Source: a virus. Taken from it: a stretch of DNA of 64,000 nucleotides. The notes beneath the pieces are model-generated. The model was not told where the DNA came from and searched no databases. It worked only from the letters and a program-made list of their open reading frames with translations. The position numbers and the translations under genes were made by a program. The stretch is from positions 32,001 to 96,000 of the IMG/VR virus record IMGVR_UViG_3300030202_003282, one strand, 5' to 3'. Below, piece by piece: positions 7,287-32,086 of this stretch (position 1 is the stretch's first letter; every line of letters starts with the position of its first letter).

Positions 7287-10200
7287 ATGGAAGATTTTAA
7301 TCAACTAGATCCTCAATTACCTGATCCAACTGATCCAAATGGAGAATTTAATAATTTATTAGATCCTAATTTAAATTATGGAAAACCAGGTGCTCCTGAC
7401 ATGCCTGTAATAGATCCCAATTTTGCTGATGAAGTTGCAAATAGAGGTCTTCATACTGATTTAGGTTATCAAATGAGACAAGAATTTGATTATAAACCAA
7501 TTCAAGAATATTTAGCACCTGATATTCATGAAGGCTGGACAAATGCTGTAAATATGGAAACAGCTAATATGATTCAAGCAAATGCTCCAATGATTAACGC
7601 ATCATCTATAGGTGGTGTAAGTAATACTTTAGGAAGTAAGCCTGGACCTGCAGGCCTTGATTGGAATCCTTCTGGACCAACAGAAGATGATAGATGGCTT
7701 AATCAATTAAGTAATACTACAATTTCTGAAGATCAAACACAACCTGAAATGTTAGGGGATCCTATGGAGTTTGGTATAAGATCTAGCAATTTTGAAAGAT
7801 ATTATAATCATCCTAATTTTCAAAAGTTAGGATTTAACCCTTATGTAGATAATGAATCTTATTATAATGCTAACTCTAGTGCGTGGGATGATTCATTAAG
7901 AATGTGGCCACAATTTGGAGGACAATATGCAACAGGATTTAGTTCTATATTTAGATCAATAGGAGATTTATTTGATGATGATCCATATTTTACAGCTGCA
8001 GATATAGAAAGTGCACAAGAAATGCAAGATCAGATGAGAATTGGAATGAGTTCAAGAGGTGGTGCATCTGGATTCATGAATAACCTTACATTAAATTTGG
8101 GTTATACTGCAGGTATAGTTTCAGAAATGGCATTAGAAGAACTTGTATTATGGGGTGCTGCTGCTTTACAAGGTGGTATGAATCCAGCATCAGATGCAAT
8201 GGCTGTAGCATCAGGAGCAAATGTTATTAGAAGATTTGGAAACTTAGTAAAAGGTGGATTTGGATTTGTTAAAATGGCAGAAACAGCTAAACTTTTAAAA
8301 GCAATGACTGCTTCACAAACGGCTAAAGCTGTGTGGAATACTACTAAAGGTATTGGCAAAGGAGCTGGAAAATTCTTTACTCCTAATACTTTATATGCAA
8401 TGAAGTATTGGAGAACAACTGGAAAAGCAGCTGAAGGTTTAACTAATATGGCAAAAGTTTCAAGAACTGCCGGAGCATTTTATAGGGATGTTAGAGCAGT
8501 TAATCTTGCAGTTTCAGAATCTAAATTAGAAGGTGGATTAGTTTATAATGAAAGAATGAGTGCTGGTTTAGCACAATGGTATGCAAAACCTGAAAATAAA
8601 GGAAAACAACCTACAGCTCAAGATTTACAAGAAATACAAGTAAATGCTGCAAATGCTGCAAGTAGCACTGCTTTATGGAACATACCTTTTATATATGCTA
8701 CAAATAAACTTGTTTTAGATGGTGCATTAACAGGGTTTAAACCTATTAGTAGATTAATGGATGAAAGTTTAAGTGGTTGGCAAAGAAGAGTGATGCGTCA
8801 AGCAGCTACTAAAGGAGGTATGCCTCAAAAAAATATTTGGAAAAAAATATCAAAAGGAAAATTAGGAGGATGGTTGCCTAGCACACAAATGATGAAACAG
8901 TGGACTATAAAAGGTTCAATGAAAAGAGGAGCTGCAGGATCTTTAAGATATTTTTCTGGAAATTTAGGAGAAGGTGTTCAAGAGCTTTATCAAGAAGCTG
9001 TATCACATGGAATAAAAGATTATTACTCAGCTATATTTGATGATCCTGCAATGGCAGGTAGTGACGCTATGTTGGCATCAGCAGGTGAAGGCATTAAAAG
9101 TCAATGGGGTGCTCAAGGTGGTGAAGTGTTTTTATCAGGATTTTTAATGGGAGGACTGATACAAGGTCCTCAAAAATTATTTTTTGAAGGTGTTCCAGCA
9201 TTATATCAGTCTAAATTTCAAAAAGAAAAATGGAATGAATATCAAAAAAATAAAGAAGATTATATTGATTTAGCTGTTGAAAATCTTAACAATGTTCATA
9301 ATAGTCAAGTAGATAATCCAGATAAATTTATGGATTTTGATAAAATGAATTTTGTAGCTCAAAAACAAGCAGCAGAAGAAATGATGAAATCTGCTTATGA
9401 AAATGATGTTTATGGTTTTTATAATCATAAAGATGATTTAAAATATAGAGCTTTATATTCTGTACTTGGAGAATATAAAATGAAGGGTTATCTTAAAGAT
9501 CAATTAAAAGATTATTTAAAATTAGATGATAAAATGTTAGCTGAAGCTTTTCCAGGAAATCAAGCTGATATTAAAAACGGAAAATTTAGAGAAAGAATTC
9601 AAGATATGATTGGTCAAATTGATCAACATGATAAAATTGTAAGAAAAGACATGAGGCAAAATAAAAATCCTTATGACAGAACGCAATTTGAAGACGGAAG
9701 TACAGAATGGAAAAGAGAACTTTTAAGAGAAAGAGCTTGGGAACACGCACGTTTTTTAAAATTATTTACTAGAAATAAATGGAAAAGAGCAGGGGAAAGA
9801 ATACAAGAAATTGATAAAGAATTAGAATCACATCCAGTTCTTAGTAAGTTAGCAGCTAATGACTTAATTGCATTATCTGACGTAGAAACTTTAGATAGAG
9901 AAATAACTTTACTTAGAGAGGATTTAAAACTGACTAAAGGGGAAACTAAAAAAGAAAAAGAATTACTTAAATCTAAAACTGATAGATTACGTTTATTAGA
10001 AAATGTAAATAAAGTTTTAAATGATGAAACTAATTATAATAAAACTGGTCAAAGAAGAGGTCATTTTAACAAAAAGAAATTAAACAGTTTAGAAAAACCA
10101 GTTGTTAAATATTTGGAATATTTAGCAAAAGAAAGAAATCAGAATATAGAATGGGGTGAAGTTAAAGGTCTTATTGGCTTATTAGTAGACCGCACAAACT

Positions 10201-13200
10201 TAAAAGATGATTCTTTAAAATATGGCAGATCTGTAAGATTTATGGAAAACCCAAAAGAATTTGAAAAAATAGTTGATAAAACATTTGAGTATTTAGAAAA
10301 AAGATTTAAAAATGCTAAGTCTGAGTTGAGAAAAAGAATGAAAAAATATGCAGCTCAACAAGAAGGTATTGGTTTAGTAAAAGCATTTGAAAACTTAAAT
10401 GAAGGTAGTGGTGTAATTCCTACTCCAGAAGCTTTAGACTATTTCTTTAAAAGTGAAGATGCTACTGTATTTTTACAACAAACTGAAGATGGAACTTTAG
10501 TAAACTTAGTTACTGAATCTGGTGGTATTAATAAAGAATCAAGCCCATTAGTTTATAATGAAATTGTAAGACTTGTAGGTCAGTATAATAGAGCTCAAGG
10601 TCAAACAGAATCAGAGTCTGCTGAAGATATGTCAATGGGTGATGAATTTGATGTAGAATATGAAACAGATGAAACTAGTGAAAAAGCAACTGATGATCAA
10701 GTAAAAAAACCAAAAAGAAAAGTTGAAATATTAAAACCACAGGCTGAAGAAGTACTTAATAAAAAACATAAAAGTCATGTTAGTAAAACAATAACTGAAG
10801 GTGGTAAAAAACCTTTATCACCAGAAGGTTTTAGAAAAAGTAAAGAAGGTCAAAATATTATTAAAACTTTTATAAGGTTAGAAGAAAAATATCAAAACTA
10901 TTTAAACAGTGTACCTGAAGGACAAAACCAATTGCAATTTGAACAATGGCTAGCTTCTAATGAAACAAATCCAGAAATTGCTGACATTGTAAATAATGCA
11001 GGTTTAGCATTTTCAGATTTATCTGGAAAAGAAAATCCTCAAAATTTACCTGCTGATAAACTACAACCTTCTGATAAAGAAGTAAAAGATTATCAAATTC
11101 CTGGGTTACATCTTATAGAAAGAACTGGAGAAAGTGGAGACACAACAATAACTTATTATGTTATTCTTGATGAAAATGGTAATAATACATATAACACATA
11201 TAAAGGATTATCCACAGCTAAAACAAAAATTAATGACACATATACCACATTAGATGATGCCAAAAAAGCTTGGAGAAAAATTGAAGAAAATATGCCTGAT
11301 GATACTCCATTTGAATTTGATGGAGAACAACTATTTCATGGAGCTATAGTAAACAATAAAAAAACTAAAGATAAATATGTTGTTATATCTACACCAAAAG
11401 GATTAGCAAAAGGAAAACAAATGGGTAAAAGAAAATTATTTCTATTACCTCTTAATCTTGTTGATGCTCCAAAAGCACAAAAAAATAAAGGAACATTAAA
11501 GTTAAATGCAGGAGAATTTAAAAATAAATATGAATTAATTGATGAAACGTTTGAACCAGCACTTACAAATACAAGTAAGTTAAATCCAAATGAGTTTACT
11601 ACATTCTATGCTTGGGAAAATAAAATAGCTGGTGAATCAAAAGCTGATGCTCAAATGAGAATGGATTATATTTTAAATAATTTAACTAATGAAGAGTTAA
11701 ATAATTTAGAATTTGAAATAATTAGAAATAAAGAAGTAACTGCACCAGAACCTTTTCAAATTAAACAATCTAAAGATGGTAAAACATATGAGCCAAATAA
11801 TCAAGTTTTAATTGGTAGTGAACGTTACGGTATTGCTTTAGTTATAAAAGATCCTGCAGTAAGAGTTAAAGTAGAAACTATATTAGCAGAATCTAAAGCT
11901 TTTGCTGAGTTATTAGATAGCACTGGAAATCCATCCGGTAAATATTTAAATGAAAATGGAACAGTAGCATTTTATGGTGCAGCTAAACAAAGAGTTTTTA
12001 AAGATTCTTCTGGAAATACTATAGAAGTTCCTAATATGACATCTGCTCAAATAAGACAAATATTTAGACCATCATATAGTGGAACAGCACTTTACTTAGA
12101 TAAATCTATTAAAGATGGTTATGCTAAACAGCAATATATTTTAGAGCAATTATTAAAAGCTAAAGAAGCTGGGGCAGTTAGTGTTCCTGTTTCAAATTTA
12201 GATGGAGGAATAATATTAAAATCAAGTCCTGGAAGATTAGCATATGTATCAAAAGGTTCTGCTTTAGTTCCATTATCAGAATTATCAAACTATAGTGCGG
12301 ATAATAATGGTAATGTATTAATTTTAGACAATCAACGTGTAGACACTGAGTACACTAAAAAGGATCTGGAACAGTTAGAAAAAGATAATCCAGATACTAT
12401 ATATAAAGTAGATAATCAAGGCAAGGTTTATAAAGTTGCAGGAAATCCAATAAGTAATTTAAAAGGAAAAGCTTTAACTAAACTTTATAATGAGGTTAAA
12501 GCAGGTATGGGTAATTATTTAAATTCTGCAATGGCTGCTGGTAGATATGTGGCTATAATTAAATTACCAAATGGTGTATATACTTATGCAGAGCTGCAAT
12601 CACAAAAACTTAATGAAGAAGAAATATCAGATGTATTAGTAGATATTAAAGAAAGAGCTACTAAAACTATAAAAGATAATGTAGTTAAAGAAGAAAATGA
12701 ACCATGGTCAGATGCTACTGTAAAGGATGAATTTTACAACACTAAAATAAGTAAAACATATCCTGAAGGTTATAACAATGAATTAAATAAGAAATTTTAC
12801 ATATACAGTTTACCTGGTTATACTGTTAGTATGAAAGTAAGTTCTTATGGTTATGTTCAGATTGAATTTTATAATCAAAAAAATTCTGATAAAACATTTA
12901 CAATTAAAATTAATCAGGATCAGATTAGTGAAATGAAACCTGATATTGCAAATTTTAATGCTCTTGTTGGTGAAATTGCTACAGATTTTATAACTGGAAA
13001 TGAAAATTTATCTAAGTCTCAGAAACAAGCTTTAGAAACATTAGTTGCTGGAGGTACCATTTTTTCAACAGATAATTTCCGTAAATCTATTGATAGAAAA
13101 ATAACAAATGTTGATGATATAATAAATAATGTTGATTCAAAAATTGATAGTAGAATTAGATATGATGTTGGTTTATTAATTGATGTTACAGATTCTTCAG

Positions 13201-16200
13201 TAATACAAGCTTTAAAAGTTAAAGAAAATATTACTGATACACCAGTAGAAGAAACAGAAGAACCAGGTGGTAGTATAGATCTAAAAGATTTACAAAATCA
13301 AGATCCAACTATAAAATTAATTGATGATTTAACTGATGAAGAATTTAATGAAAGTAGAGAATTAGGATTTGAAGATATTAGTAATGAACAATTACAAGCT
13401 ATTGCTGATAAAGATCAAAACAAACTTTCTTCAAAAGAATCATTAGTTATTAAAGTATTAGATAGTAGATATCAACCAATGATAGCTGCTAAAGCTGTGG
13501 AAATGAGTACAGCTGCAAATAAAAGAACTGAGCTTCAAAATAAAAGAAAGGAAGTTATTGATGAAATAAAGCTTATCAAAGCAGAAAATAGAACTGCTGC
13601 AGGAGAATTATATCCTGAAGATAATGTTAAGATGAATAAAGAAAGAATGGCTCTTAACGAAAAATCTAAAAGGCTTAAAGCTTTAGAAAAAGAACAAAAA
13701 TCTATAGAAAGTCAATTAGCTAAAGGAGCTCTTAAAGTTGTTAGTGAATCAGCAGAGGTAAATAATCCTGAAGATTTAGATGTATTTATTGAATGGGTTC
13801 AAACTGTATTGCCAGACTTTGTAACTATTGGGGATATTAATACATTAAGAGAGCGTATAATAACAAATGGTTATACTGTAGGTGCATTTGTAATGAATTT
13901 AAAACAAATGTCAGGAGGTATAGATATTAACGGTACAATATTTACTGGAGAAAATATGCCTTCTAGATATCATGAAGCATTTCATGCAGTATTTAGAATG
14001 TTGCTTACAGAAGAAGAACAAAAAGTTTATTATGATATAGCAGCAAAAGAGGTTAGAGAAAAACTTAGAAAAGAAGGTAAAGTATTTAATGAGGAGTTAC
14101 AAAAACTTAAAAACTCATCAGTTATATATTCTAACTTATCTACTGAACAATTAAAGAAAGAATACTATGAAGAGTATATGGCGGATGAATTTGAAAAATT
14201 TAAAAAAGATCCAAAAAGTACTAAGACTAATTCTTTAATTAAATCATTATTTAACAGATTTGTTGAATGGATTAAAAGCATACTTGGAAATAAAAACAGA
14301 ACTGAACTAACAAGTTTCTTTAAAGCTATTAATGAAGGAAAATATAAAAATGCAACTATTCAAAACAATGCATTTACAGACAAGCCGTCATTAATGAATG
14401 GAGCTAATATTGCATTAGCACAAATTCCAATTGATTTTGTTGAGTATGAAACTTATAATCCATTTACAAAACAAGATGAAACTCAGTTTCAAACTGTATA
14501 TATGCCATCAAGAGATGTAGATAAAATACTGCATAGTATGGCAGCAATATATCTCAATAGAAAGATGAATGCTACTGGGGTTTGGATAGGTGCTGATCAG
14601 TTAGAAGATGTAATGGATCAATTTGCACTTATGTTTAATCCAGAGTCAGAAACTAATTTAATGAAGCCTGATTTAGATCAAATGGAAGATCAATTAGCAT
14701 TGTATAATGAAGCATTTGAGAATTCAATTACTAGAATGGAAATAAGAAATGCTGTAGAAAAAGTATTAAGTTTAGCTGATATTCAAATATCAGAAGAGGA
14801 AGAAATTATTGATGCCCAAGAAGAAACAAACGGTTTAAGAGATACTTCTCAATGGGATCTAGATGCAAGTATGATAGGAGGTTATTCATCATTAGCTTCT
14901 AGTTTAAGACAGTTTATAATGACAACTGCTGTTGAGACTTCTGATTCTTTTGGAAACACTGAATTACCTTCTGGAGAAAAACTTATTGTGCCTGTAAATT
15001 TTGTTGAAGCATATAATTTATTATTAAAAGCATCTGCTAATAGAACTAGTTCACAAGATGTATTAAAAGCCATGAATGCATTTACATTAAATGGCAATCA
15101 TGAAGGTGCTGCAGTAGTTGATAGAATTTTTACAGAAATAGGAATATCTAGAGATGATGTTTTAGCAGGAGATTTTGATAATGTTAAAAATCCATATTTT
15201 TATACATCAGTAATAAAAGCGTTTGATCAAGTTAGATTAGATTATATTTTTGTACATAGAGATGAAGACGGGAATGTATTATTATATGATGCTGCTTCTA
15301 GAGATGATGCTAAATCTCAGTTTAATCATTGGAATGATGCATATGATATGCAATTTGATAAACTAAGATTTGATTCAAAATTAAGAGAAGAAATCATAGA
15401 AAAACTAAGAGAACTACAAACTGAATACTTTGGAGAAAGTATGGCATCTCTTGATGGAAAAGCGGCTGATACTTTAATACAAGATTCTGAAGAATATTCT
15501 AATTTTATTCAAGATAAGTTAGGTATTTCACTTAGTCCCACATATATACAATATAGTATTCTTGATAATGTAGTAACTAAAAATGAAAGTCAACAAGCAT
15601 TGATGGATGTTTATACTGCTGAAGTATTAGATTTTGAAGATCTAGAACAAATGATGCTTCATTTAAGCCTTAATCAAAATCTTTTTGTACAAGAAGAAGG
15701 TGAAGGTATAAGAGGACGTTTAGAAAAATTAGCAAGAGGTAATGCAGCATTTGATGAAAGAATTGGTGCATCTGTTTTTAGAAATCCAAATGGAGATTTA
15801 GTTTATGCACATCAGTTACCTACAATGCATACGGTTAAAATTAATGAGTTAAATGATATAAATAACTTAGAAGATTTAAAAGATGGTGCATATTTAGAAA
15901 GAAATGCTTTATTAAATGATCCATATTTTTATCAATTAGCTACTGAAAAAAGAATAAAAGTTTTAAGAATAGCAGGTAGTAAAGAAGGAGGAACAATAGA
16001 TGAAGATACTTTAGTTGAAACAAGTGGTATGTCAAATGATGTTTCTGGTGTTACATATGGTGATTCAACTCCACAAGAATTTATAGTTGATTTAATAAAT
16101 GTGTATACTTATTTTTATAACACTAATAAAAAAGAAGTTGAAGGTGTTTCAATAGGTGATGATATTCCTAGAGCATTAGCTCCATCTTTAATAAGAGTTA

Positions 16201-19200
16201 TTGAAGCAAGTAATCAAGGTGATTTTATTGGACTACCTGTAATTAAATCTGTAGTTAAAAATGAAGATGGTGAAACAGCTATTAGTGAAGAAGCATTAAA
16301 TAAATTTGTAAATGAATTAGAAAACGAATATAATAGAATTAAACGTGAGTCAAATACAGATACAGCAACTGAGGATCTTATAGTAGGATATAATGCCCGT
16401 GAAGCAAATGGTACAATTATACCGGATGAATCAGGTAGAGCATTTAAATTATCTAATACCGGAAATTTAGTTTCACCTAAAAAAGCTAGAAGTATAGATA
16501 GAAGTAGATCTGTAGATGAAATATATGTAGCTCCAGAACAAGCAGAGTTATTATATGATGAAAAAAATCCAACCAATTTAATAATTAGAACACCAGCTAC
16601 TGCAATTAAATTAGGAATACGTAATGGAGAAACTGCTACAGTTGACATAACTAAAAAAGGTAATAAAAAAACACAAGATGAAATAGAAAAATTTACATTA
16701 AGAAGTAGAGGTAAAATAACAGTTGATGAAACTAATATTGATTCTATTATTAAAGCATTTGGAAGTTCTGTAAGTACTACAGAAGTAAAAGATTGGTTTG
16801 ATTTAAAAATAGGTGATAAAAAATGGTGGGTTCAAAACTATAAAATTTTACAATTTTTACAAGGTAAGAAAGCAATGGTTGCTTATGATATTACTAAGGG
16901 AGAAACAGCACCGGTTGATACTCAATCAACACAACCAACTAGTGATGTTGAAACTTATAAAGGTCTTGTTGATATCAAAAACTTAAAAGATAATGAAGAT
17001 ACTGCATTTGGATCTAATCAATTTGGATTTCATGGTGGTGGTACGGCAGGAATACTTTATGCAAATGATCCAAGAGCTTACAAAAAACAAGAGATTGAAG
17101 GCAAAGGTCTTAGAGTAGAAGTAGGTAAAGCTAGAGGATTTCAAACGGGTATAGAAGGTTCATCTTATGCATTACAAACTGTAACTGATTGGAAACTTAA
17201 AATGAATGATCCTAAAAGACAAGTTTCTAAATCTGAAATTACAAGTCAGATAAAAGACATGTATGATTACTATAGAAAAAACTCTGATAGAAAAGTATAT
17301 GTACTTTATACAACAGGTGGTAAAAACTTAAACGGGTATAGTTCTTTAGAGATGGCAAAAATGTTTGCATCTGCAGGTCCAATACCGTCTAATGTTGTTT
17401 TCAATGAAGACTTAATAGCTTTAGTAGACACCGCTTCTCAACCAATAGAACAAACTAGTGAGGTTGAAGCAGAAGAAGGTAGTGAAGCAATTCAACAAAC
17501 TAAATTATCAGAATCTCAGATTTTTGAAGATTTAAAAACTAAATTAGAAGAAAAAGCTAAAGCAGGAAGATCATTTAAACAAGCTCTTAATGAAATACCA
17601 GGTATTGATCAAAATATACTTAAGAGTTTAATGGAAGAAAGATTGATGGAGGAGTTTCAAGATTTTAGAATTACACTAGATGAAATTAATGCAACTAATT
17701 CTATATCCTCTAAGATTTTAGATGGCTTCTTTAATGAGAATAATAAAGTTGGACCTCTTGAAAATGATGCAATGAATGCATTAAATTTAAGAACAGAAGA
17801 CCCTGATTTTAACTTAATGCAAATTTATTTTAATGATTGGCTTAATTCAAAATCCTTTAATGATGTTATATTAGGAGATCAAGCAATGTCATTAAAAGAT
17901 GCTGTAGAAAAAATTAAAAGAGCTAAAGCTAATAATGCAGCTGGATATAGTGCACAAACAGATATATATAATGAAGATATAGATATACTACATCCTGTTG
18001 AAAATATTTCTTTGTTTACTATAACAGATCCTAAATACAAACAATTGTTTGATTTTGGAAAAGAAGGAGAAGGAGATAAAGCTGATGCTCAGATGTGGAT
18101 GACAATTAAAGCATTTCAATATATGTGGTTTGGTTTTGGTAAATTAAATGCAAAACAAAATGCCATTATACAAAAATTAAAGAAAGGTGAAAAATTAACT
18201 TCTGAAGATATATTTGGTAATCCAGAAACAGGAGCTGAAGGTTTAAAATCATTTAATGCATTTATAAATTCTAAAAAACTAGTATATGCAGATGGAAATA
18301 CTTTCTTAAAAATGTCAGCATTTGTTCTTACTAAACAATTAACATCTAGAAAAAATTCACAAGGACAGTGGGTTGCTAAAGAAAATAGAAAAGAGCTGCA
18401 TAGTCTTAGAGAAAACTTAGAATCTTTTGAAGAAAGAGAATGGAATGAAAATGGTAATGGAACATTAGCAATTGCTACACCAATGTCAGCTAGCAAAATG
18501 TTTAAGTCAAGTGTACTTAATGAAGAAAAGTTATTTTCAAGTTCAGAAAATTTAGCTGTAGATCAATCTACAACACTTAGTGCAAAATGGATGAGACTTC
18601 AAATGATAAATCCATCTGGTAAAGTAACTATTACTGATCCTACACAAATGAAAAGTTTAGTTACTAGTGAACAAAATGATGCAACAGAAGTTTGGATTAA
18701 TGGTGAAAAAACTGATTTAGGAACTATAAGAAAAGCTTATCAAAAATCTACTTCAAATAGAGCTCAGTTAAAATTTATTAATCAAAGAAATTTATTACTT
18801 GATTTTAATGTAGAAACTGCAATGCGGGAATTAGAAACAAGTAAAATAGAAGGAGATTTTACAGTAGATTTACATTCATTTTTAGAATATGCAATAGAAG
18901 GATTAGAATCTTCTCAATCATCTGCAAGTATAATAGAGTATTTTAGACAAGATGCGGATGGACAATCAAGAAATTTAAATAACCCTATTACAATAAATAA
19001 ATTTGAACAATTATTTTTATCATATTTTAGTAAGCAAGTATTTAGAGAAAAAATTCCAGGACATAAAGTTTCTTTACTTTCTGGAAAGGGATTTAAAGTA
19101 TATAGAAAAGTATTAAGTGTTGATGAAAATGGTCAACCAGAAAGATCTGAAATAATAAGAGATGATCAATGGGAAGCAATGTCTGAAAATGAAAGACCAG

Positions 19201-22200
19201 CTCTTTTTAAAACAGAATATGATGATGTAAAAAATAAAACTTTTGTAGGATTAGAGCAAGCATTAAAAAGTAATATAAAAGGTGGAGTTGTTGTTTTAGA
19301 TGAACTTAAATTTAATGTAAAAGAGTTTGATGAAAATGGTAATGAAACTGGACAAAGATATGCTGAATATATAATGCCTCCTCATTTTAAATCAATAATG
19401 GATAAAATTATTGCAACAGGTGGAGAAACAATTACAGCTTCTGAAATTCAAAAGAAATGGAAAACTTGGGCTAATACAAAATCTTATTCTCCTAAAGCTG
19501 ATGATTATATAGTAAGATCAAAAATAGAAGGATTTGATGCAAATAGATCTAAAAAAGAATATGCTGTTGCATTTGGTTATGCAACAACAACAAACAAAAA
19601 AGGAGACATTGTATTTTTATCAAAAAATGGTAAAGGTCTTGCTAATATTCCAGAAACTGTTGCTAAAGCATTTGGTGTACGTATTCCATCACAAGATATG
19701 CATTCATCTATTAATTTAAAATTAGTTGATTTTATGCCTGCATATTATGGTTCAACTGCTGTATTTCCGGATTCATTAATTGAAGTATCTGGTGCGGATT
19801 TTGATATTGATGCTCTATACATGCAGATAAAAGACTTTTATGAAGATGGGAATTCTTTTAAATCTTACGGTAGTGCAACTACTAAAATAGGAAAGTATAG
19901 AGAATATATTGACTATCAAATGAAAGATGCTTATAAAGGAGGATCTTCATTAGATGCAGCAAGAAAAAAATATTTAGCAAAAGGAGTTAACCGTAATACT
20001 TCATTAACGGATAAACAAAAAGCTAAAGCTAAAGAAGAAGGTTTGAGTGATGATGTTATAGGAGCATTAATGGTGTTAGGATTACCTATAACTCAAAAAC
20101 AATATGAAACTTATAAAGCAGAGCGTTCTTATACAGTTGGAAAAGGAGAAAATAAAATAGAGTTTGAACAAGAACCATATGCAGCTCCTATAAATAATGA
20201 TGTGTTAGATCAAAAATTTGCATTGTTAGGAAATGAAGCAATGACACTTACAAAAGATGGAAGACAAGTTCCTATTGCATATGAATCAGCTGTATTAGAT
20301 CCATTACTAGAAGAATGGGATTGGATTCAAGAAAACTTACCAGAATTAGCAGAATTAACACAAGAAGATGATGTAGATGTAGATAATTTAAGCGGTAAAT
20401 TAAAAGCATGGACAAACAATAAAGAAGGTGCAAGAGGAATTGGTGCTGCAGTATTACCAAATGTTATTCTTAATTTACTTAAAGAAGCCCGTGTAAAATA
20501 TAGAAGTATTAAAGTTGATGGTAGAGAAACATATCCTCAAATAAGATATAATGGAGTAACCTTTAATGAATTTGGTACAGAAATAGAAATTGATCCAATA
20601 ACTAAAAAAGAAAAGGTTGGTGGAGAAAGAACTCAATTTGTTATATCTGCACTTATTACAGCAATGACTGATAATGCTAAAGAAAGATTAGCTGCAAAAT
20701 TAGGATTAAACAAAGATGCATTAGCAACTGTTGTTAATCTTACTGCATTAGGTGTTCCAATAAGAACATCAATTTTATTAATTAATAACCCAATGATAAA
20801 AAGATTTTATTGGGAAAATTCAAATAAAGAAAATCCAGAAGATGCTGGAATTTTTAAAAGAGTTAAAGATATGTTAACTGGACCTGGCGGATTAGAAGAC
20901 GTGTATTTAAGTTTATATGGAAAAGATCTTGCTACTGATGCTAAACTAGAAGTAACTGATGCAAAGTTATCAGAAGCAATTAAAGAAATGAATGACTTTA
21001 ATTCAGATGAAAGAAAGTCAGGTACTATGTTTAGTTCAAAAAACGCTGAATCAAGAAGGTATAGTAAATCAATGTTTCAAAGAGATTATAAAATTTTAAA
21101 ACAATGGCAAAGTGCTCATAGACTTAAAAAGTTTACAGGTGAGCTTCAAAGTGTAGTTAATCTTGCAAAAACATTAGGTCAAAACTTTCAAAATGTTCAA
21201 GATAGAAATAATGCTGTTGAAAATTTAGGATTGTTTTATGAAGGACCGTATTCTTCTTTAACAATGTCAAATATAACTAATGAACCAATTGGTTTACCAT
21301 TAGAAAATGGATGGCAAAAAATATTTAAAGGTGATGATCAAACATTCCATGGAAACAATCTTAATATGGATAGACAATTGCAAGATCTTTTACCTAAAAT
21401 CTTTTTATCTAAAACTGAAAAATTCCAAGATATATTAAATGTTACACTTAGTAATATGAATCAAAGAGTTTTACAAGATAGATATAAGGGTTCAAAATTA
21501 TATGATAAAATAAGTACAGATCTTATTTCATATGTAACAATTAAAGCTTATATCCAAGGACTAAGAAAAGCGGGTAAACCTGTAAGTTTATCATCATTGA
21601 ATAATGGGCTTATCTATAAAGAGAATGGAAGCCCGGTTCAAATAGATGATGTAATAAATAGACTTAGAAAGGTATATGAAGGTAAAGAAAATTATTTTTT
21701 AAATAGATTTATTTTTAATGATTCACAATATAAACCTACAAATACTACTGGTATTAATCAGTTAAAATCTACTACCTGGACAAAAGTATCACCAGCACAA
21801 GTAGAAAAAATTCAAAATGGATTTGCAGATATATTTAGTAATATAGATACTAGATCAGATGCAATACATATAGCTCATTATTTAATGGTTAAAGATGGAT
21901 TGCAGTTTAAAAGCGGAAGTATTTTATCAGCAATGGCTCCTTTTATTTATGATCTTTATTTAGATTATGTTGATATAGCACATGAAGCATTTCAAACAGA
22001 AGAAGATAATAAAGCATTTGCAGATATATTTGGTATGAGCCATAAAGAAATGATAGGAGACTTTACATTAGGTTATCTTAAAGCTAACCCAATAAACTGG
22101 ATGTTAAATACTGTTGGTAATAGTGGAAGAAAAAATGGAAGAAATATAGGTGTATATGCACCAGGTGAAAACAAATATCAAATTGGATCATTTAAAATTG

Positions 22201-23621
22201 AAAATGTTGAAGCAGATCAAGATAATGCATATGTATTTTCAGAATCTCAAGGTTATAAAGGGAATGCAAAAATTAAAGATCTTGATAATGCATTTGGTAT
22301 TCAGTTTAAAAAAGATGCTGGAATAACTGAAGAAAGTTATTTTACTAATGATGATTTAGCAGATTTTCAAGAATTGATTGATGCTCAAATTGATGCTATA
22401 TTAGATGACGGAAGAAATGTTATTTTTCCTAGAACATTTTTAAGCAAAACTGAAAAAACAAATATTGCTAAATATGGTCCTGAAATTTTTAATTACATGC
22501 AACAAAGAATGCAAGATGTATTTAATTATAATATAAAAACTAATGATATAACAGCTGAAGGAAAAATAAGTGAAAAAGCTGCTGCTAATAGACCTGCATT
22601 AATATTAGAAACTGAAGAAGGAAATGGATTAATAGTAGATGTATATAATGGTGTAATAGCAAGACCTTCTGAAACAACATCAAAAAATGAAATTAATGAA
22701 AGATTTTATAGTAATGTAAGTAAAAAAGCTAATAAACAAGTAAGTATTAATCTATCAACTTTAGAAAGAACTCATGGTTTTAAAACAGTTAGAGTAGACA
22801 CTAAAGATGGATTAAGAACAGAAATAATTTTTCCTGCAGAGCTTAGAGTAAAAGAAATGATTGCAGAAAAAAATGAAAATGGAAGATTAATTAAAACACC
22901 TTTTATTAGAACGTTTGAATTAAAAAAGATTTGGAGTGGGACTAAAACAGGATCAACAGAATTATTGACTACAAATCAACCAGTAGCTATTGGCAATAGA
23001 GCTGAATATATAGAAACTACTCCGGTTGGTTCAAATCAAGCAACTCCAATTGCATTTTCATTTGATGGTGAAGTTCCAACATATGAAAACATTAGAAGAG
23101 GAGTGCTTGAAAGAGAAGAAGGAGATAATGATAATGAAGACAGCAATCCATTTAGTGCTGGTGTTATAGGCAATAAAAAATTTATAACTAAAGAAGATTT
23201 AGCTAAAGAACAAGCAGTACAAAATGGAAATATTAAAGCAGATGAAAATGAAATACTTGTAAATGGTGAAAATATTGCAGGTATTAATAAACAAGAAGAA
23301 ATTGAACCTACTATAGAAGATAATGGGTTAAATGAAACTACAGTTGTAGATCCTACAGATAGTGGACCTAGTATTGATATAGAAGCTTTAGGTTATACAT
23401 TTCCTGGTTCTGTTGATGAATCTTTTGTATTAATAGATAACTTTATTGAAACTGAAATAAAATCTAAATCTAAAGCTGAACAAACAGAACTTTGGAAAAA
23501 GATGAAAGAAAATAGTGAAGGTATAATTAAAGATGAAGAATCAACTATAGAGGCATATCAAGACAGTGTGTTTGAAACTGAAGAAGAATTCATTGATTAT
23601 CTAAAAAAATGTATAATTTAG
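7287..23621 (+). CDS. Giant virion-packaged RNA polymerase polyprotein (double-psi beta-barrel RNAP) with zincin metallopeptidase and Macro-like domains
   Basis: 5444 aa. RIPSQ (nt 19680), GADFDID catalytic loop (DFDID at 19797-19811) and AMTDNAKE (20661) resemble the phi14:2 gp66 / crAss vRNAP. HEAFH lies at 13971-13985 with a downstream EEYMADEF. The N-terminal region is G/A-rich and hydrophobic. Confidence 0.88.
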   Translation: MEDFNQLDPQLPDPTDPNGEFNNLLDPNLNYGKPGAPDMPVIDPNFADEVANRGLHTDLGYQMRQEFDYKPIQEYLAPDIHEGWTNAVNMETANMIQANAPMINASSIGGVSNTLGSKPGPAGLDWNPSGPTEDDRWLNQLSNTTISEDQTQPEMLGDPMEFGIRSSNFERYYNHPNFQKLGFNPYVDNESYYNANSSAWDDSLRMWPQFGGQYATGFSSIFRSIGDLFDDDPYFTAADIESAQEMQDQMRIGMSSRGGASGFMNNLTLNLGYTAGIVSEMALEELVLWGAAALQGGMNPASDAMAVASGANVIRRFGNLVKGGFGFVKMAETAKLLKAMTASQTAKAVWNTTKGIGKGAGKFFTPNTLYAMKYWRTTGKAAEGLTNMAKVSRTAGAFYRDVRAVNLAVSESKLEGGLVYNERMSAGLAQWYAKPENKGKQPTAQDLQEIQVNAANAASSTALWNIPFIYATNKLVLDGALTGFKPISRLMDESLSGWQRRVMRQAATKGGMPQKNIWKKISKGKLGGWLPSTQMMKQWTIKGSMKRGAAGSLRYFSGNLGEGVQELYQEAVSHGIKDYYSAIFDDPAMAGSDAMLASAGEGIKSQWGAQGGEVFLSGFLMGGLIQGPQKLFFEGVPALYQSKFQKEKWNEYQKNKEDYIDLAVENLNNVHNSQVDNPDKFMDFDKMNFVAQKQAAEEMMKSAYENDVYGFYNHKDDLKYRALYSVLGEYKMKGYLKDQLKDYLKLDDKMLAEAFPGNQADIKNGKFRERIQDMIGQIDQHDKIVRKDMRQNKNPYDRTQFEDGSTEWKRELLRERAWEHARFLKLFTRNKWKRAGERIQEIDKELESHPVLSKLAANDLIALSDVETLDREITLLREDLKLTKGETKKEKELLKSKTDRLRLLENVNKVLNDETNYNKTGQRRGHFNKKKLNSLEKPVVKYLEYLAKERNQNIEWGEVKGLIGLLVDRTNLKDDSLKYGRSVRFMENPKEFEKIVDKTFEYLEKRFKNAKSELRKRMKKYAAQQEGIGLVKAFENLNEGSGVIPTPEALDYFFKSEDATVFLQQTEDGTLVNLVTESGGINKESSPLVYNEIVRLVGQYNRAQGQTESESAEDMSMGDEFDVEYETDETSEKATDDQVKKPKRKVEILKPQAEEVLNKKHKSHVSKTITEGGKKPLSPEGFRKSKEGQNIIKTFIRLEEKYQNYLNSVPEGQNQLQFEQWLASNETNPEIADIVNNAGLAFSDLSGKENPQNLPADKLQPSDKEVKDYQIPGLHLIERTGESGDTTITYYVILDENGNNTYNTYKGLSTAKTKINDTYTTLDDAKKAWRKIEENMPDDTPFEFDGEQLFHGAIVNNKKTKDKYVVISTPKGLAKGKQMGKRKLFLLPLNLVDAPKAQKNKGTLKLNAGEFKNKYELIDETFEPALTNTSKLNPNEFTTFYAWENKIAGESKADAQMRMDYILNNLTNEELNNLEFEIIRNKEVTAPEPFQIKQSKDGKTYEPNNQVLIGSERYGIALVIKDPAVRVKVETILAESKAFAELLDSTGNPSGKYLNENGTVAFYGAAKQRVFKDSSGNTIEVPNMTSAQIRQIFRPSYSGTALYLDKSIKDGYAKQQYILEQLLKAKEAGAVSVPVSNLDGGIILKSSPGRLAYVSKGSALVPLSELSNYSADNNGNVLILDNQRVDTEYTKKDLEQLEKDNPDTIYKVDNQGKVYKVAGNPISNLKGKALTKLYNEVKAGMGNYLNSAMAAGRYVAIIKLPNGVYTYAELQSQKLNEEEISDVLVDIKERATKTIKDNVVKEENEPWSDATVKDEFYNTKISKTYPEGYNNELNKKFYIYSLPGYTVSMKVSSYGYVQIEFYNQKNSDKTFTIKINQDQISEMKPDIANFNALVGEIATDFITGNENLSKSQKQALETLVAGGTIFSTDNFRKSIDRKITNVDDIINNVDSKIDSRIRYDVGLLIDVTDSSVIQALKVKENITDTPVEETEEPGGSIDLKDLQNQDPTIKLIDDLTDEEFNESRELGFEDISNEQLQAIADKDQNKLSSKESLVIKVLDSRYQPMIAAKAVEMSTAANKRTELQNKRKEVIDEIKLIKAENRTAAGELYPEDNVKMNKERMALNEKSKRLKALEKEQKSIESQLAKGALKVVSESAEVNNPEDLDVFIEWVQTVLPDFVTIGDINTLRERIITNGYTVGAFVMNLKQMSGGIDINGTIFTGENMPSRYHEAFHAVFRMLLTEEEQKVYYDIAAKEVREKLRKEGKVFNEELQKLKNSSVIYSNLSTEQLKKEYYEEYMADEFEKFKKDPKSTKTNSLIKSLFNRFVEWIKSILGNKNRTELTSFFKAINEGKYKNATIQNNAFTDKPSLMNGANIALAQIPIDFVEYETYNPFTKQDETQFQTVYMPSRDVDKILHSMAAIYLNRKMNATGVWIGADQLEDVMDQFALMFNPESETNLMKPDLDQMEDQLALYNEAFENSITRMEIRNAVEKVLSLADIQISEEEEIIDAQEETNGLRDTSQWDLDASMIGGYSSLASSLRQFIMTTAVETSDSFGNTELPSGEKLIVPVNFVEAYNLLLKASANRTSSQDVLKAMNAFTLNGNHEGAAVVDRIFTEIGISRDDVLAGDFDNVKNPYFYTSVIKAFDQVRLDYIFVHRDEDGNVLLYDAASRDDAKSQFNHWNDAYDMQFDKLRFDSKLREEIIEKLRELQTEYFGESMASLDGKAADTLIQDSEEYSNFIQDKLGISLSPTYIQYSILDNVVTKNESQQALMDVYTAEVLDFEDLEQMMLHLSLNQNLFVQEEGEGIRGRLEKLARGNAAFDERIGASVFRNPNGDLVYAHQLPTMHTVKINELNDINNLEDLKDGAYLERNALLNDPYFYQLATEKRIKVLRIAGSKEGGTIDEDTLVETSGMSNDVSGVTYGDSTPQEFIVDLINVYTYFYNTNKKEVEGVSIGDDIPRALAPSLIRVIEASNQGDFIGLPVIKSVVKNEDGETAISEEALNKFVNELENEYNRIKRESNTDTATEDLIVGYNAREANGTIIPDESGRAFKLSNTGNLVSPKKARSIDRSRSVDEIYVAPEQAELLYDEKNPTNLIIRTPATAIKLGIRNGETATVDITKKGNKKTQDEIEKFTLRSRGKITVDETNIDSIIKAFGSSVSTTEVKDWFDLKIGDKKWWVQNYKILQFLQGKKAMVAYDITKGETAPVDTQSTQPTSDVETYKGLVDIKNLKDNEDTAFGSNQFGFHGGGTAGILYANDPRAYKKQEIEGKGLRVEVGKARGFQTGIEGSSYALQTVTDWKLKMNDPKRQVSKSEITSQIKDMYDYYRKNSDRKVYVLYTTGGKNLNGYSSLEMAKMFASAGPIPSNVVFNEDLIALVDTASQPIEQTSEVEAEEGSEAIQQTKLSESQIFEDLKTKLEEKAKAGRSFKQALNEIPGIDQNILKSLMEERLMEEFQDFRITLDEINATNSISSKILDGFFNENNKVGPLENDAMNALNLRTEDPDFNLMQIYFNDWLNSKSFNDVILGDQAMSLKDAVEKIKRAKANNAAGYSAQTDIYNEDIDILHPVENISLFTITDPKYKQLFDFGKEGEGDKADAQMWMTIKAFQYMWFGFGKLNAKQNAIIQKLKKGEKLTSEDIFGNPETGAEGLKSFNAFINSKKLVYADGNTFLKMSAFVLTKQLTSRKNSQGQWVAKENRKELHSLRENLESFEEREWNENGNGTLAIATPMSASKMFKSSVLNEEKLFSSSENLAVDQSTTLSAKWMRLQMINPSGKVTITDPTQMKSLVTSEQNDATEVWINGEKTDLGTIRKAYQKSTSNRAQLKFINQRNLLLDFNVETAMRELETSKIEGDFTVDLHSFLEYAIEGLESSQSSASIIEYFRQDADGQSRNLNNPITINKFEQLFLSYFSKQVFREKIPGHKVSLLSGKGFKVYRKVLSVDENGQPERSEIIRDDQWEAMSENERPALFKTEYDDVKNKTFVGLEQALKSNIKGGVVVLDELKFNVKEFDENGNETGQRYAEYIMPPHFKSIMDKIIATGGETITASEIQKKWKTWANTKSYSPKADDYIVRSKIEGFDANRSKKEYAVAFGYATTTNKKGDIVFLSKNGKGLANIPETVAKAFGVRIPSQDMHSSINLKLVDFMPAYYGSTAVFPDSLIEVSGADFDIDALYMQIKDFYEDGNSFKSYGSATTKIGKYREYIDYQMKDAYKGGSSLDAARKKYLAKGVNRNTSLTDKQKAKAKEEGLSDDVIGALMVLGLPITQKQYETYKAERSYTVGKGENKIEFEQEPYAAPINNDVLDQKFALLGNEAMTLTKDGRQVPIAYESAVLDPLLEEWDWIQENLPELAELTQEDDVDVDNLSGKLKAWTNNKEGARGIGAAVLPNVILNLLKEARVKYRSIKVDGRETYPQIRYNGVTFNEFGTEIEIDPITKKEKVGGERTQFVISALITAMTDNAKERLAAKLGLNKDALATVVNLTALGVPIRTSILLINNPMIKRFYWENSNKENPEDAGIFKRVKDMLTGPGGLEDVYLSLYGKDLATDAKLEVTDAKLSEAIKEMNDFNSDERKSGTMFSSKNAESRRYSKSMFQRDYKILKQWQSAHRLKKFTGELQSVVNLAKTLGQNFQNVQDRNNAVENLGLFYEGPYSSLTMSNITNEPIGLPLENGWQKIFKGDDQTFHGNNLNMDRQLQDLLPKIFLSKTEKFQDILNVTLSNMNQRVLQDRYKGSKLYDKISTDLISYVTIKAYIQGLRKAGKPVSLSSLNNGLIYKENGSPVQIDDVINRLRKVYEGKENYFLNRFIFNDSQYKPTNTTGINQLKSTTWTKVSPAQVEKIQNGFADIFSNIDTRSDAIHIAHYLMVKDGLQFKSGSILSAMAPFIYDLYLDYVDIAHEAFQTEEDNKAFADIFGMSHKEMIGDFTLGYLKANPINWMLNTVGNSGRKNGRNIGVYAPGENKYQIGSFKIENVEADQDNAYVFSESQGYKGNAKIKDLDNAFGIQFKKDAGITEESYFTNDDLADFQELIDAQIDAILDDGRNVIFPRTFLSKTEKTNIAKYGPEIFNYMQQRMQDVFNYNIKTNDITAEGKISEKAAANRPALILETEEGNGLIVDVYNGVIARPSETTSKNEINERFYSNVSKKANKQVSINLSTLERTHGFKTVRVDTKDGLRTEIIFPAELRVKEMIAEKNENGRLIKTPFIRTFELKKIWSGTKTGSTELLTTNQPVAIGNRAEYIETTPVGSNQATPIAFSFDGEVPTYENIRRGVLEREEGDNDNEDSNPFSAGVIGNKKFITKEDLAKEQAVQNGNIKADENEILVNGENIAGINKQEEIEPTIEDNGLNETTVVDPTDSGPSIDIEALGYTFPGSVDESFVLIDNFIETEIKSKSKAEQTELWKKMKENSEGIIKDEESTIEAYQDSVFETEEEFIDYLKKCII

Positions 23622-23635
23622 AATAAAAAAAAAAG

Positions 23636-26600
23636 ATGGCTAAATGTATAAATAGAAGTGCTCCAGAATATGCTCCTTTATTAAAGAAGTATAAGTCTGT
23701 AATTACAGTAGATAGTATTATAAATAAATGGCAAGATTTTAATTTTGGTACAGATTTATTTCCTACAGTAGCACAAGCGGAAGAATATCTTAATAATAAA
23801 AAAGCAGTATATTCATTAAAACAAAGAGAATTTGATGAAGCGTTAGTTGCTAATTTAAGAAAATTAGGTTTAGTGCAAAGAAGAAATGTAAATGGTCAAT
23901 TAACTATTTATGTGCAGAATACGCCTAAAGAAGGAGCCCCTTATATATTTAGAGCAGAAAAAGATCAGCTGTTAAATAATGAGCAATCTAAAAAAGTTGC
24001 AGATGAAAATTTTAATAAAGTTTTAAAATATCTGCAAGTTCACGGAATGCCTTTAGATTATTTTATTCCTACGTATACAAAAAGAACTATAAGATTAGAT
24101 GTTAATCCTTCTGCAGTTAAACCAAAAGATATAATAGAAATAGCTAAAAAAGCTACTAGAAAAATTTCTCCTAATACTACTGCAATATTAGAGCATTTAG
24201 GACAAATGTTTCCTCAATTAAATATTAATGTAGTTAATAAAGAACAAGCACGTAGATATTGGGAATCATTACCACAAGCAATAAGAGGGTTAAATAAAAA
24301 TAAATTTGACCAGGTAAACTCATTTTACTATAGAGGAAATGTAATATTAATTGAAGGAAGAATTAATAGTGAAACAGCAATAGAAGAAGTATTACACCCA
24401 TTTATGGATGCAGTATATGCACAAAATAAAAGTTTATTTGAAGGTTTATTGTCAGAAGCTAAAGAAAACTTTCCTGAATTAGTTGTTAAAATTGAAAATG
24501 CATATAAAACTAGTGATGATGTATTTTTTGATCAAACTCAAATAGATAAAGAAATAGTAACACAAGCTTTATCTAGACATTTTAATAGAGAATATGAAAA
24601 TAATCCAACAGAAAGTTGGACAACAATGATAAAAGATTTGTTTGATTTTTTTATGACAATTTTAAAAGATCTACATAAATATATAAGTGGTAAAAATTTA
24701 AAAGGAGTTAGAGTTGAATCTATAGTTGGCTTTGCAAAATTATCTGATATTGCTAAACTTTTAAATACTTCAAATATTTCATTTGATTTATCATTAGCAA
24801 ATAAAGATAAAATAAATAAAGTTCAGTATTCTTTATCTCCAGGTAAAATGGCTATTATAAATGCTGCAATAGCACAAGGAAATCCGCTTCAACAAAAAAT
24901 TGTAGCACAATTATTTCATACACCTGGAAATGTACCTATGGATAAAGATAGTGCTTTTACAGATGAAGATGGTAATTATGATTTTTTAACTGCTACAGGA
25001 GTACAGGATGGTGAAACTATAATAGTATTAAATGCAAAAGATCATGTATACTATAATGTAAAGACGGGAGAAGCATATACATCAGCTACTACTGTTATAA
25101 AAGGTACAATGCCTGAATCAGTGAGAAAAGATAAAAGAATAGCTCTTGAATTAGGAAATGATTTTGATGCAATTACAGACGGTATAGCTGCAGGATTAAC
25201 TTTAGATCAAATTAAAGATAATATGACAATATTAGATCCTGAAGTAATTAGAGATGCATATAATCAAATATTTGCAACAGTTAATAATATTGAAATGGAA
25301 CCTACAATGGTGGGTAAACCAGAAAGAAATATTGTTTTACCACAAGTAATTTTATATGATGAAAAGACAAAAACTGCTGGTACAGTAGATTTAATGGTTA
25401 TTACACCAACAGGACAAATAAGAATTATAGATTTAAAAACTAGTAAAAATTCAATTAACAAAATTGATAGATTTTCTAAAAGTCCTGCATATAGTACAAA
25501 TAGTTTTCCTTTAGGAGAAGATTCTAAATTATTATATGAAACTGAAGATGGTCAATATTTATTAGATTCAAAAGGTAATAAAATTAGAAAAACAGAATTA
25601 TCTGGAAAAAGAAAAGGTTTGCCTTTACGTATAGAAATGACTACAAAGCAACAACATGATATGCAAGTTAATCTTTATAGAAGAATGGCTGAAAACATGG
25701 GGTTAGAAATTGAGCATGGTAGGTTAGGTACAATGACTTATCATATTCATGTTCCTTGGACTACAAAAGATTTTAATAAAGATGGTAAATATACAGGAAC
25801 ATTTAGATTAGAAGGTTTCCAAGTTCAACAAGATCAACAAAATGAACTTTATATTGATCAATTAGTACCTGAAGATAGAAATAGTTGGAGTGCTGAAAAA
25901 ATGCAAAGAACGGTTGAGCAAGATGAAAATTCTCCTTTAAAGGATAATTATTTAAATGATAACGAAGCATTGCCAGAAGATATTACTGATGCAAATGGGC
26001 TTACAGAATACAATACTATTTTTACTGCATTGCAAGATTTTAAACAAGGATTGTTAGATAGAAAAACTGCATTATTACAATTAAGATCAGCAATTACATT
26101 AGACAAAACAAGAGCTGAAGCTGTTGAAATGATTGATGATAAAATAGCTGCTATTGAAGTTGCAACTTTAATAGGTGATGGTAAAAAAATGGCAGCTGAA
26201 TATACTAGACTTATGACATCTTCTATTAAAGAAATGGATAAGTTTATAGAATACATGAATAATCCTAAAAATTATAATTCTCAAAAGTATATTAATTATG
26301 CTTTAAATTTTGACAAGTTTATTGCAACATATTCTGGATTAAGAAATATAAAAAAATCTGGAGATTTGAATAATACTCAGATGAAATTATTATTGACTTT
26401 AGAAGATAAACTTAAAGAAATTGGTGGTTATCAAAAATCAGGTGGAGAAGTAGTAGAAGGACTTGTAGATAAAGCTATTTCAAATTATGTTAGAACATAT
26501 GTTAAAGAAAATAGTAACAGAGAAGATTTAGATGATGCTACATTAGATAGTATAATGAAGTTAGGTGAAGACATAGGCATGTTTGAATTTGGAACTTATG

Positions 26601-31879: not shown

Positions 31880-32086
31880 TTAAACAACACGTTCATATCT
31901 AAAAGTAATAAAAAAAATACCTAAATGTATTCCAGTACAACTTTTAAAATTTTCTTTATCATTGCTTACTTCACAATTTTTGATTTTTATTCCTATCAAT
32001 GCTTCAGAAGGTAAAAAATCAATATTAAAATTATTTTTTTTATTTAAACCCTTATAATTTTGGGCATTTGTATGTCTTTCTTCCAT
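31880..32086 (-). CDS. Small hypothetical protein
   Basis: 68-aa ATG ORF filling the gap upstream of nrdJ. Confidence 0.5.
   Translation of the reverse strand: MEERHTNAQNYKGLNKKNNFNIDFLPSEALIGIKIKNCEVSNDKENFKSCTGIHLGIFFITFRYERVV

Follow-up and report, generated by a model that had tools for sequence, protein, structure and literature searches.

The DNA considered here is the stretch of 64,000 nucleotides (nt) from position 32,001 to 96,000 of IMG/VR virus record IMGVR_UViG_3300030202_003282, a phage record of 116,753 bp; this whole stretch is called the window below, coordinates are window positions, and the source runs are marine metagenomes. The window encodes a giant protein of 5444 amino acids (aa) that, judged by homology, is the virion RNA polymerase (vRNAP) polyprotein of a marine crAss-like phage. 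Window positions 16917 through 17471, inside this gene, probably form a self-contained cassette made up of a leader linker, a ~160-aa macro-fold domain and a trailer linker, and the cassette in all likelihood fills a hypervariable slot between the backbone sequences ..GETAPV and EEGSE.. of the polyprotein. Comparison with related sequences indicates that the site is a polymorphic slot: close relatives have it empty or fill it with a GNAT-like or an ART-PolyVal domain, and in distant relatives different domains are found. A single judgement of likely covers this best explanation as a whole, that is the cassette, the slot and the inferred counter-defence role discussed at the end. A preliminary description, made from the letters alone, had called attention to two 16-nt repeats, R1 (AACTAGTGATGTTGAA, 16937-16952) and R2 (AACTAGTGAGGTTGAA, 17453-17468), that lie in one frame in the polyprotein gene and encode similar linkers; all of this is reproduced, as both repeats lie in the open reading frame (ORF) at 7287-23621 on the + strand, are identical at 15 of 16 positions and are offset by 516 nt or 172 codons, and the peptides ..PVDTQSTQPTSDVE and ..VDTASQPIEQTSEVE read as had been given. 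The parts of the slot region are:

16914..16916, + strand: last backbone codon before the slot (V3210 of ..GETAPV), common to the relatives P0003, P0201 and P0199; the contig from run X19 departs after 16917
16917..16952, + strand: leader linker DTQSTQPTSDVE, which holds R1; nucleotide homology to the cassettes of metagenome loci L010, L011 and L012 begins at 16921-16924
16953..17429, + strand: macro-fold A1S_2505 core, aa 3223-3381 (TYKG...LVD), predicted from NF049995, PHROG 2072, AlphaFold2 (AF2), Foldseek and the ratio of nonsynonymous to synonymous substitution rates (dN/dS)
17430..17471, + strand: trailer linker TASQPIEQTSEVEA, which holds R2 (17453-17468); the X19 contig rejoins at 17471
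17472..17486, + strand: first backbone residues after the slot (EEGSE), present in P0003, P0201 and P0199 and replaced by ESGSE in P0004

Occupants of the slot in related polyproteins

The closest relatives with no cassette are protein P0003, protein P0201 and a contig assembled from run X19. P0003 is 90% identical to the window protein over 3227 and 2053 aa and passes from ..GETAPV through a 15-aa acidic linker into EEGSEAIQQ.., and the slot of P0201 contains an 11-aa form of the same acidic linker. The X19 contig (3534 nt) shows 5 differences from the window over 16300-16917 and 17 over 17471-18016, and it skips the intervening 553 nt, with 43 other letters between; these 43 letters and one flanking base on each side add up to 45 nt, or the 15 codons of the P0003 linker. 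The preliminary description had suggested a search for alleles that lack the cassette and keep a single repeat. Alleles without the cassette do exist, but none of them keeps a single repeat; an unrelated acidic linker of 11 or 15 aa stands there instead.

Its suggestion that other domains might be found between the same linkers is borne out by P0199, which is 96% identical to the window protein over 2057 aa downstream of the slot and reads ..GETAPVDTQLVQQASDVE, a different ~170-aa domain, ..TQTSEGE.. and EEGSEAIQQ. The leader ahead of this domain, PVDTQLVQQASDVE, is related to that of the window and is of the type PVDTQ..ASDVE, and the trailer contains QTSEGE. The P0199 domain appears to be GNAT-like by its Atlas score of 0.95 (to viral clusters in which 13-62% of members have Acetyltransf_1) and by a weak match in the PDB to an N-acetyltransferase (E 0.012). 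We note that P0199 is a 2252-aa protein on a 54-kb contig, with a gene call that begins at a Met, and that its upstream part may be split off or broken in this assembly.

The slot was surveyed in 44 long homologues (P0003-P0046), 39 of which have both flanking anchors. The length of the site is -6 to +44 residues in 22 of these, is short by ~154-173 residues in 13 and has at least 100 extra residues in the remaining four. The P0004 slot (+196), in a relative that is 70-77% identical, carries an ART-PolyVal domain (PF18760, E 2.1e-8); the P0007 slot (+317) carries an A1S_2505 domain (44.9 bits) and an unnamed domain; the P0008 slot (+673) has a related unnamed domain together with a PolyA_pol head and an HD domain; and the P0030 slot (+165) has the unnamed domain alone. 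The unnamed domain is ~130 aa long (KGKGTPxGDGKDKAMR ... VVGDMPGVDSQF ... YHTG), is found in the same slot either alone or beside A1S_2505, and lies at aa ~3440-3575 of P0030, at aa ~3510-3630 of P0007 and after aa 3566 of P0046. Its P0030 copy has no match in Pfam, NCBIfam or PADLOC; the domain looks SLOG-like.

The 13 shortened homologues are without the module that stands just upstream of the slot. In the window this module, of ~140-165 aa, occupies ~16500-16910 (aa ~3071-3208); it may be a second optional module, and a similar one precedes the cassette in fragment P0047.

Among the reads, a contig of run X13 jumps from 16920 to 17437 and so leaves out exactly 516 nt of the window; the shorter side of this joint has 32 letters, and the contig then continues for ~750 nt unlike the window; a second contig from this run begins to match at 17450 after 54 unlike letters. 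An allele with a different cassette after an R2-like leader could account for the joint, and so could the way in which the alignment chose between R1 and R2. Coverage of the window by runs X11 and X12 is partial, and the parts that they leave uncovered are taken as no evidence.

These comparisons bear on the possibility that the segment belongs permanently to the structure of the RNA polymerase, which its in-frame position in an uninterrupted ORF would allow. It is scarcely credible: A1S_2505 is missing from the site in 38 of the 39 anchored homologues and any domain-sized insert in 35 of them, near-identical alleles lack the segment, the segment is predicted to fold alone, and stand-alone versions exist (62 of the best 150 representatives are 400 aa long or shorter; see below). 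The cassette-less alleles refute a fixed part in all homologues, one of the two findings that the preliminary description had named as fatal to its proposal.

The macro-fold domain and its host polyprotein

The preliminary description had noted a likeness between the insert and A1S_2505-type phage proteins, and by profile comparison the insert is a true member of that family. The 186-aa insert scores 48.6 bits (E 7.8e-13) against NCBIfam NF049995 (A1S_2505_Nterm), above the cut-off of 45, and it matches PHROG 2072 with an E value of 7e-15. The family motifs TYxG and FGSN..GFHGGGTAG...SYALQT are present, NLNGY and IP.N are found as well, and the window copy fills each of the ten columns that are invariant in A1, a family alignment of 42 sequences (F33, G34, N36, G44, G72, G76, G80, G83, T90 and N161 in the numbering of the window copy). 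A phmmer search of 1.84 billion representatives gave 534 relatives at E<=1e-3, 149 of them at E<=1e-10. Among the best 150 of the 534, beside the small proteins already mentioned, 48 have 2000 aa or more, and in these large proteins the domain can lie anywhere along the chain, with 22 of the 48 copies in the last fifth. The window thus shares with A1S_2505/PHROG 2072 proteins a profile score over the cut-off and the TYxG, FGSN..G.HG.G and SYA..T motifs, and differs from them in that its domain lies inside a 5444-aa protein as one of its modules rather than being a small stand-alone phage protein. A scan of IMG/VR with the insert found no relative, and blastn of window 15500-19000 against the phage collection gave no match.

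The structure models support an independent fold of the three-layer alpha/beta macro-like type; the second finding that would have been fatal, an insert with no such fold, was therefore not made either. An AF2 model of the domain, made with the family alignment, has a predicted local distance difference test score (pLDDT) of 87.3 and a predicted template modelling score (pTM) of 0.84. In a Foldseek search of the PDB it matches 62 chains at E<=1e-3, with macrodomains first (top E 2.6e-5, template modelling scores of 0.5-0.66 for the top matches); the best of these are the nsP3 macrodomains of Venezuelan equine encephalitis virus (VEEV) and chikungunya virus (CHIKV), TARG1, DarG, YmdB, Poa1p and Af1521. 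In a structure search of BFVD, giant proteins of crAss-like phages come first and viral macro-domain proteins next.

The backbone in which the cassette resides has the following features:

7287..23621, + strand: zincin plus vRNAP polyprotein of 5444 aa, the slot-bearing backbone; a single ORF with a match to the crAss001 RNA polymerase
13971..13985, + strand: HEAFH zincin-type motif, aa 2229-2233, found by regular expression; a putative peptidase by motif only
19797..19811, + strand: DFDID catalytic-type motif of crAss-like vRNAPs, aa 4171-4175, found by regular expression
22191..22505, + strand: DUF7831, aa 4969-5073, a fixed C-terminal module (Pfam PF25176, E 1.3e-11, 44.9 bits, cut-off 27)

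The assignment to a vRNAP polyprotein, also made in the preliminary description, agrees with the DFDID motif at aa 4171 and with the match of aa 4121-4316 to the crAss001 "putative RNA polymerase" (E 5e-7, 25.6% identity). A tblastn search with aa 3950-4650 found 86 phage records, and all 25 of those listed are annotated as putative RNA polymerase or a subunit of it. The HEAFH region aligns to the distant proteins P0011 and P0014 at 23-28%, and Pfam finds no match at this motif; the metallopeptidase reading of such zincin-type motifs is taken from the literature (PMC5512222; 10.1101/2020.03.07.982082; here and below, what is said of published work refers to the accessible parts of the sources). 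With its HEAFH motif, macro-fold domain, DFDID polymerase region and DUF7831, the protein has a polyvalent-type composition. A phmmer search with three pieces of it gave nothing meaningful among the PDB sequences.

Other genes of the window are phage-like and include those for a ribonucleotide reductase, a DNA polymerase and a tail fibre. The polyprotein gene is followed by a 1961-aa ORF (23636-29521) that matches PHROG 298 "exonuclease" at aa 472-694 (E 8.8e-8). Precomputed annotation places PF25176 on 16 of 45 listed homologues of the giant protein, and DUF7831 also follows the cassette in P0200, where its 26.3 bits are just below the cut-off of 27.

Movement of the cassette and the possible role of its linkers

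Sequence comparison indicates that the same cassette, under purifying selection, recurs in no fewer than six backbone contexts that are unrelated to each other; copies that are 75-99% identical have seven flanking contexts among them. At the nucleotide level window 16921-17428 is 86.2%, 86.8% and 81.6% identical over ~500 nt to metagenome loci L010, L011 and L012, respectively, and the sole other match in the 1001 nt compared (16700-17700) is a short one that pairs 17436-17471 with the L010 and L011 leaders. At the protein level, P0014 and P0011, giant proteins that surround two of these copies, are 77-79% identical to the window protein (P0001) in the cassette and 23-38% identical in the backbone (zincin and DFDID regions), and the cassette is located after the zincin region in P0011 and after DFDID in P0014. 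Among four copies of the cassette dN/dS is 0.13-0.20 (0.17-0.20 for the window copy against the other three), and therefore the domain is under selection in every context. P0023 and P0047 have cores that are 98.7% identical, with the same sequence downstream and unrelated sequence upstream, and P0018 and P0198 likewise share what lies downstream and differ upstream; these patterns put breakpoints at the cassette's N-terminal edge. Among annotated phages, the domain occurs at differing places in the giant "putative RNA polymerase" of cr112_1 and of Kolpuevirus "frurule", in a further giant protein of cr50_1, and as a stand-alone protein in jumbo and other phages.

The 15/16 match between R1 and R2 is by itself at chance level, since the giant ORF has 8 in-frame pairs of at least 15/16 within 1 kb and codon shuffling (30 shuffles of the ORF) gives a mean of 3.7 and a range of 1-8. 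The seven further pairs are at window 9429, 10643, 13685, 18444, 19120, 21819 and 22605. Counted on the letters, the likeness of R1 and R2 stretches at the same offset to 26 of 32 positions, starting at 16921 and 17437. The encoded peptides stand out more: [ST]S[DE]VE has 2 copies in the giant protein versus 0.01 expected (200 residue shuffles), and the looser [STAV]S[DE]V[EKV] has 2 copies in the 26,714 aa of ORFs of at least 300 aa in the 116.7-kb genome, both of which flank the macro-fold domain. This motif was chosen after sight and its counts are only indicative, so they weigh less than the comparative evidence.

In that evidence, the R2 region of the window (17439-17471) is 87.9% identical over 33 nt to the leader that precedes this cassette in the unrelated locus L010, with 18 consecutive identical bases counted on the letters. 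A ..QTSEVE leader stands directly before TY[KS]G in P0011 and P0014/L010, and ..AQASEVE in L011, where an SEV-type string also follows the domain. Strings of the TQPSTSV[KE], STQPSTQPT or TQTSEVE type lie up- or downstream of A1S_2505 in seven other proteins (P0046, P0051, P0053, P0069, P0093, P0097 and P0171), and in P0006 two near-identical TQPSTSV strings bracket a part near the C-terminus that is NADAR-like by our reading. By these comparisons the repeat appears to be a genuine recurrent mark of cassette borders; it is not a local scar, because the leader accompanies the cassette in other backbones. A target-site duplication made at insertion was rejected, as empty alleles have no copy of the motif and the leader moves with the cassette elsewhere.

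We infer that linkers of the (Q/P)(T/A)S(D/E)VE type mark module boundaries for in-frame exchange. It is possible, if tentative, that they are also active recombination joints, as the preliminary description had suggested, in which linker-coding DNA gives the homology for in-frame replacement of one domain by another. The presence of two different domains in 96%-identical backbones, with similar leaders and with trailers that have QTSE[VG]E, argues for such joints, as do the ..QTSEVE-type leaders directly ahead of the cassette in P0011, P0014 and L011, whose backbones are unrelated, the nucleotide match of R2 to the L010 leader, the similar strings around A1S_2505 in the seven other proteins and around the NADAR-like domain in P0006, and breakpoints at the cassette edges. 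Against them, the empty alleles have no copy of the motif, the leaders of the macro-like and GNAT-like alleles are identical at only 10 of 14 positions though their backbones are 96% identical, so that each cassette seems to bring its own linkers, and a shared stretch of 16-30 nt at about 80-94% offers little length for homologous recombination. The cassettes of L012 and P0200 sit behind other linkers that lack the junction motif, and a composition rich in Q, P, T and S can make linkers converge.

Some of these points suit another reading, which in our view is possible too, if slightly less likely: the repeat would have no role of its own, the linkers being ordinary flexible spacers, and recombination would be illegitimate, with only in-frame, linker-bounded products surviving selection. 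The chance-level DNA match, the different linkers of L012, P0200 and P0198 and the empty alleles without the motif are all as expected from it. The excess of the peptide motif over expectation is not, nor is the fact that the motif precedes the cassette in at least three unrelated backbones and also brackets another domain in P0199.

Recombination joints of the kind set out above would resemble the conserved junction motifs that stand ahead of swappable toxin tips. In polymorphic toxins such as CdiA (with its VENN motif) and Rhs proteins, the enzymatic modules vary behind a short, conserved stretch of peptide and are swapped between large proteins that are otherwise conserved; these modules are C-terminal tips with immunity genes. 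The window module differs in that it is internal, is bracketed on both sides and serves a phage. Its junction motif is common to macro-like and GNAT-like cassettes in one backbone and to macro-like cassettes in three others, and is missing in L012 and P0200.

It is improbable that ..TS(D/E)VE is a processing site, at which a protease (the zincin peptidase within the polyprotein, or one of the head or the host) would cut and so free the macro domain after ejection. In favour are the HEAFH motif of this protein, the position of ..TS(D/E)VE on either side of the domain, its reappearance at cassettes in other proteins, and the published proposal that embedded metallopeptidases cleave such polyproteins (PMC5512222; 10.1101/2020.03.07.982082). 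However, the large ORFs of the genome (26,714 aa) have no further copy, be it in other cargo proteins or at other domain borders of the polyprotein, and the motif varies between copies (SDVE, SEVE, SEGE, TEVK). A general polyprotein cleavage motif was rejected, the motif being missing from all other large ORFs.

To return to linkers as marks of module boundaries, it is doubtful, though conceivable, that they belong to a dedicated in-frame cassette-exchange system common to the virion polyproteins of marine phages, with (Q/P)xTSEVE or TQPSTSV as a linker "address". If it existed, macro-like, GNAT, ART, NADAR, SLOG-like and CCA/HD domains would be swapped between slots of unrelated polyproteins; the system would work like an integron at the protein level, for counter-defence domains that are injected, and would turn over from strain to strain.

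Known systems and the putative role of the slot

The finding is a variant of the polyvalent-protein theme; polyvalent injected proteins, fusions of vRNAP with peptidases and crAss-like polyproteins are already in print. The polyvalent proteins of Iyer et al. 2017 (PMC5512222) are likewise large, virion-associated and equipped with effector domains (ART, GNAT, NTase) and a zincin-like peptidase; N4-like ones are joined to the virion RNA polymerase and are predicted to be injected with the DNA, and the domains also occur as solo proteins and have been accreted repeatedly. The RNA polymerase examples given there are N4-like single-subunit vRNAPs, and the window polymerase is of the crAss-like DFDID type. 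In the main text of that paper "macro" occurs only inside "macromolecule" and no macro-type module is named, though its domain tables, and those of Iyer et al. 2022, may use another name, and a strain-level polymorphic slot with shared linkers was not found in its accessible text.

In phage phi14:2 gp66 is the crAss-like virion RNA polymerase and gp65 a zincin protein, and in some phages the two are fused in one polyprotein (10.1101/2020.03.07.982082). The DFDID motif, the zincin-like protease partner and the huge size are the same in the window protein; packaging and ejection with the DNA were reported for theirs. There is no phi14:2 record among the 25 listed of the 86 phage records, and the window polyprotein has no sequence match to solved structures. 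Effector cassettes inside the polyprotein were not found in the accessible text of that work or of the Crassvirales review (PMC10136315), and a literature search for "Crassvirales" with "macrodomain" returned nothing, while one for A1S_2505 gave two papers on Acinetobacter. Within the literature so searched and accessible, neither a macro-fold A1S_2505 module in a crAss-like vRNAP polyprotein nor a strain-level slot with alternative enzyme domains between similar linkers was found.

The predicted fold is that of macrodomain ADP-ribosylhydrolases (DarG, TARG1, YmdB, Poa1p, viral nsP3), and in other polyproteins the domain has a NADAR neighbour; the window domain differs from these hydrolases in that it has no Pfam Macro match. 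In P0200 the domain immediately ahead of the cassette is NADAR (E 7.3e-15), as it is, by our reading, in P0023/L012, and ART-PolyVal is an alternative occupant of the slot (P0004). We note that NADAR (Pfam PF08719) is also found near the C-terminus of the distant polyprotein homologues P0020 and P0037. Phage NADAR enzymes have been shown by experiment to reverse DarT1 ADP-ribosylation of DNA and are anti-DarT1 factors (PMC11825919), and associations of viral Macro, NADAR and SLOG domains have been surveyed (PMC9503650). The macro fold, the NADAR neighbour, the ART-PolyVal alternative and the published NADAR work together suggest an ADP-ribose-related role. The known phage anti-DarT factors, the NADAR protein AdfN (PMC11825919) and the DarG2-like protein of chimalliviruses (PMC13309987), are separately expressed early proteins, and here the domain is part of a virion polymerase polyprotein.

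By analogy with related phages, the macro-fold domain would be packaged and ejected with the polymerase polyprotein and is predicted to act in the first moments of infection on a substrate that contains ADP-ribose, for which ADP-ribosylated DNA, RNA or protein or an NAD-derived immune signal are candidates; the substrate could equally be a soluble ADP-ribose derivative or a by-product of RNA repair. Such an action, which might be the ADP-ribose processing or anti-DarT activity raised in the preliminary description, would blunt a host defence, the alternative cassettes would provide other counter-measures, and the site looks like an exchangeable counter-defence slot.

Several results weigh against this explanation, beside the chance-level DNA match of the repeats. 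The NF049995 score falls to 40.6 bits, under the cut-off, when the domain is searched within a 2000-aa piece; the Foldseek matches are moderate, with template modelling (TM) scores of 0.45-0.66 and a root-mean-square deviation of 4-7 Å; no Pfam family, Macro included, matches the insert at E<=0.01; and PADLOC reports none in three cassettes. The GNAT call is weak: Pfam finds neither GNAT nor Macro in P0199, P0011, P0014 or P0198 (P0198 and P0014 have sub-threshold 2OG-Fe(II) matches), a single-sequence AlphaFold model of the P0199 cassette had a pLDDT of 42.8 and was discarded, which leaves GNAT unconfirmed, and P0199 starts 13 residues before its leader, so that its upstream backbone is barely seen. 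The synonymous divergence (dS) among the four cassette copies is 0.46-0.83, and therefore no sampled copy is a recent donor. Packaging and ejection, finally, are taken from work on phi14:2 and crAss001, which are other phages.

Injected polyvalent proteins are thought to be the phage's first move against host immunity, and change in their domain sets has so far been inferred only from distant comparisons. Here fold and context are attached to A1S_2505/PHROG 2072, a family with 534 cluster representatives at E<=1e-3, and a single slot differs (empty, macro-like or GNAT-like) among backbones that are 90-96% identical, which makes a natural, nearly isogenic series. This series can address what the macro-fold domain protects against, whether delivery in the virion matters and whether the linkers guide exchange.

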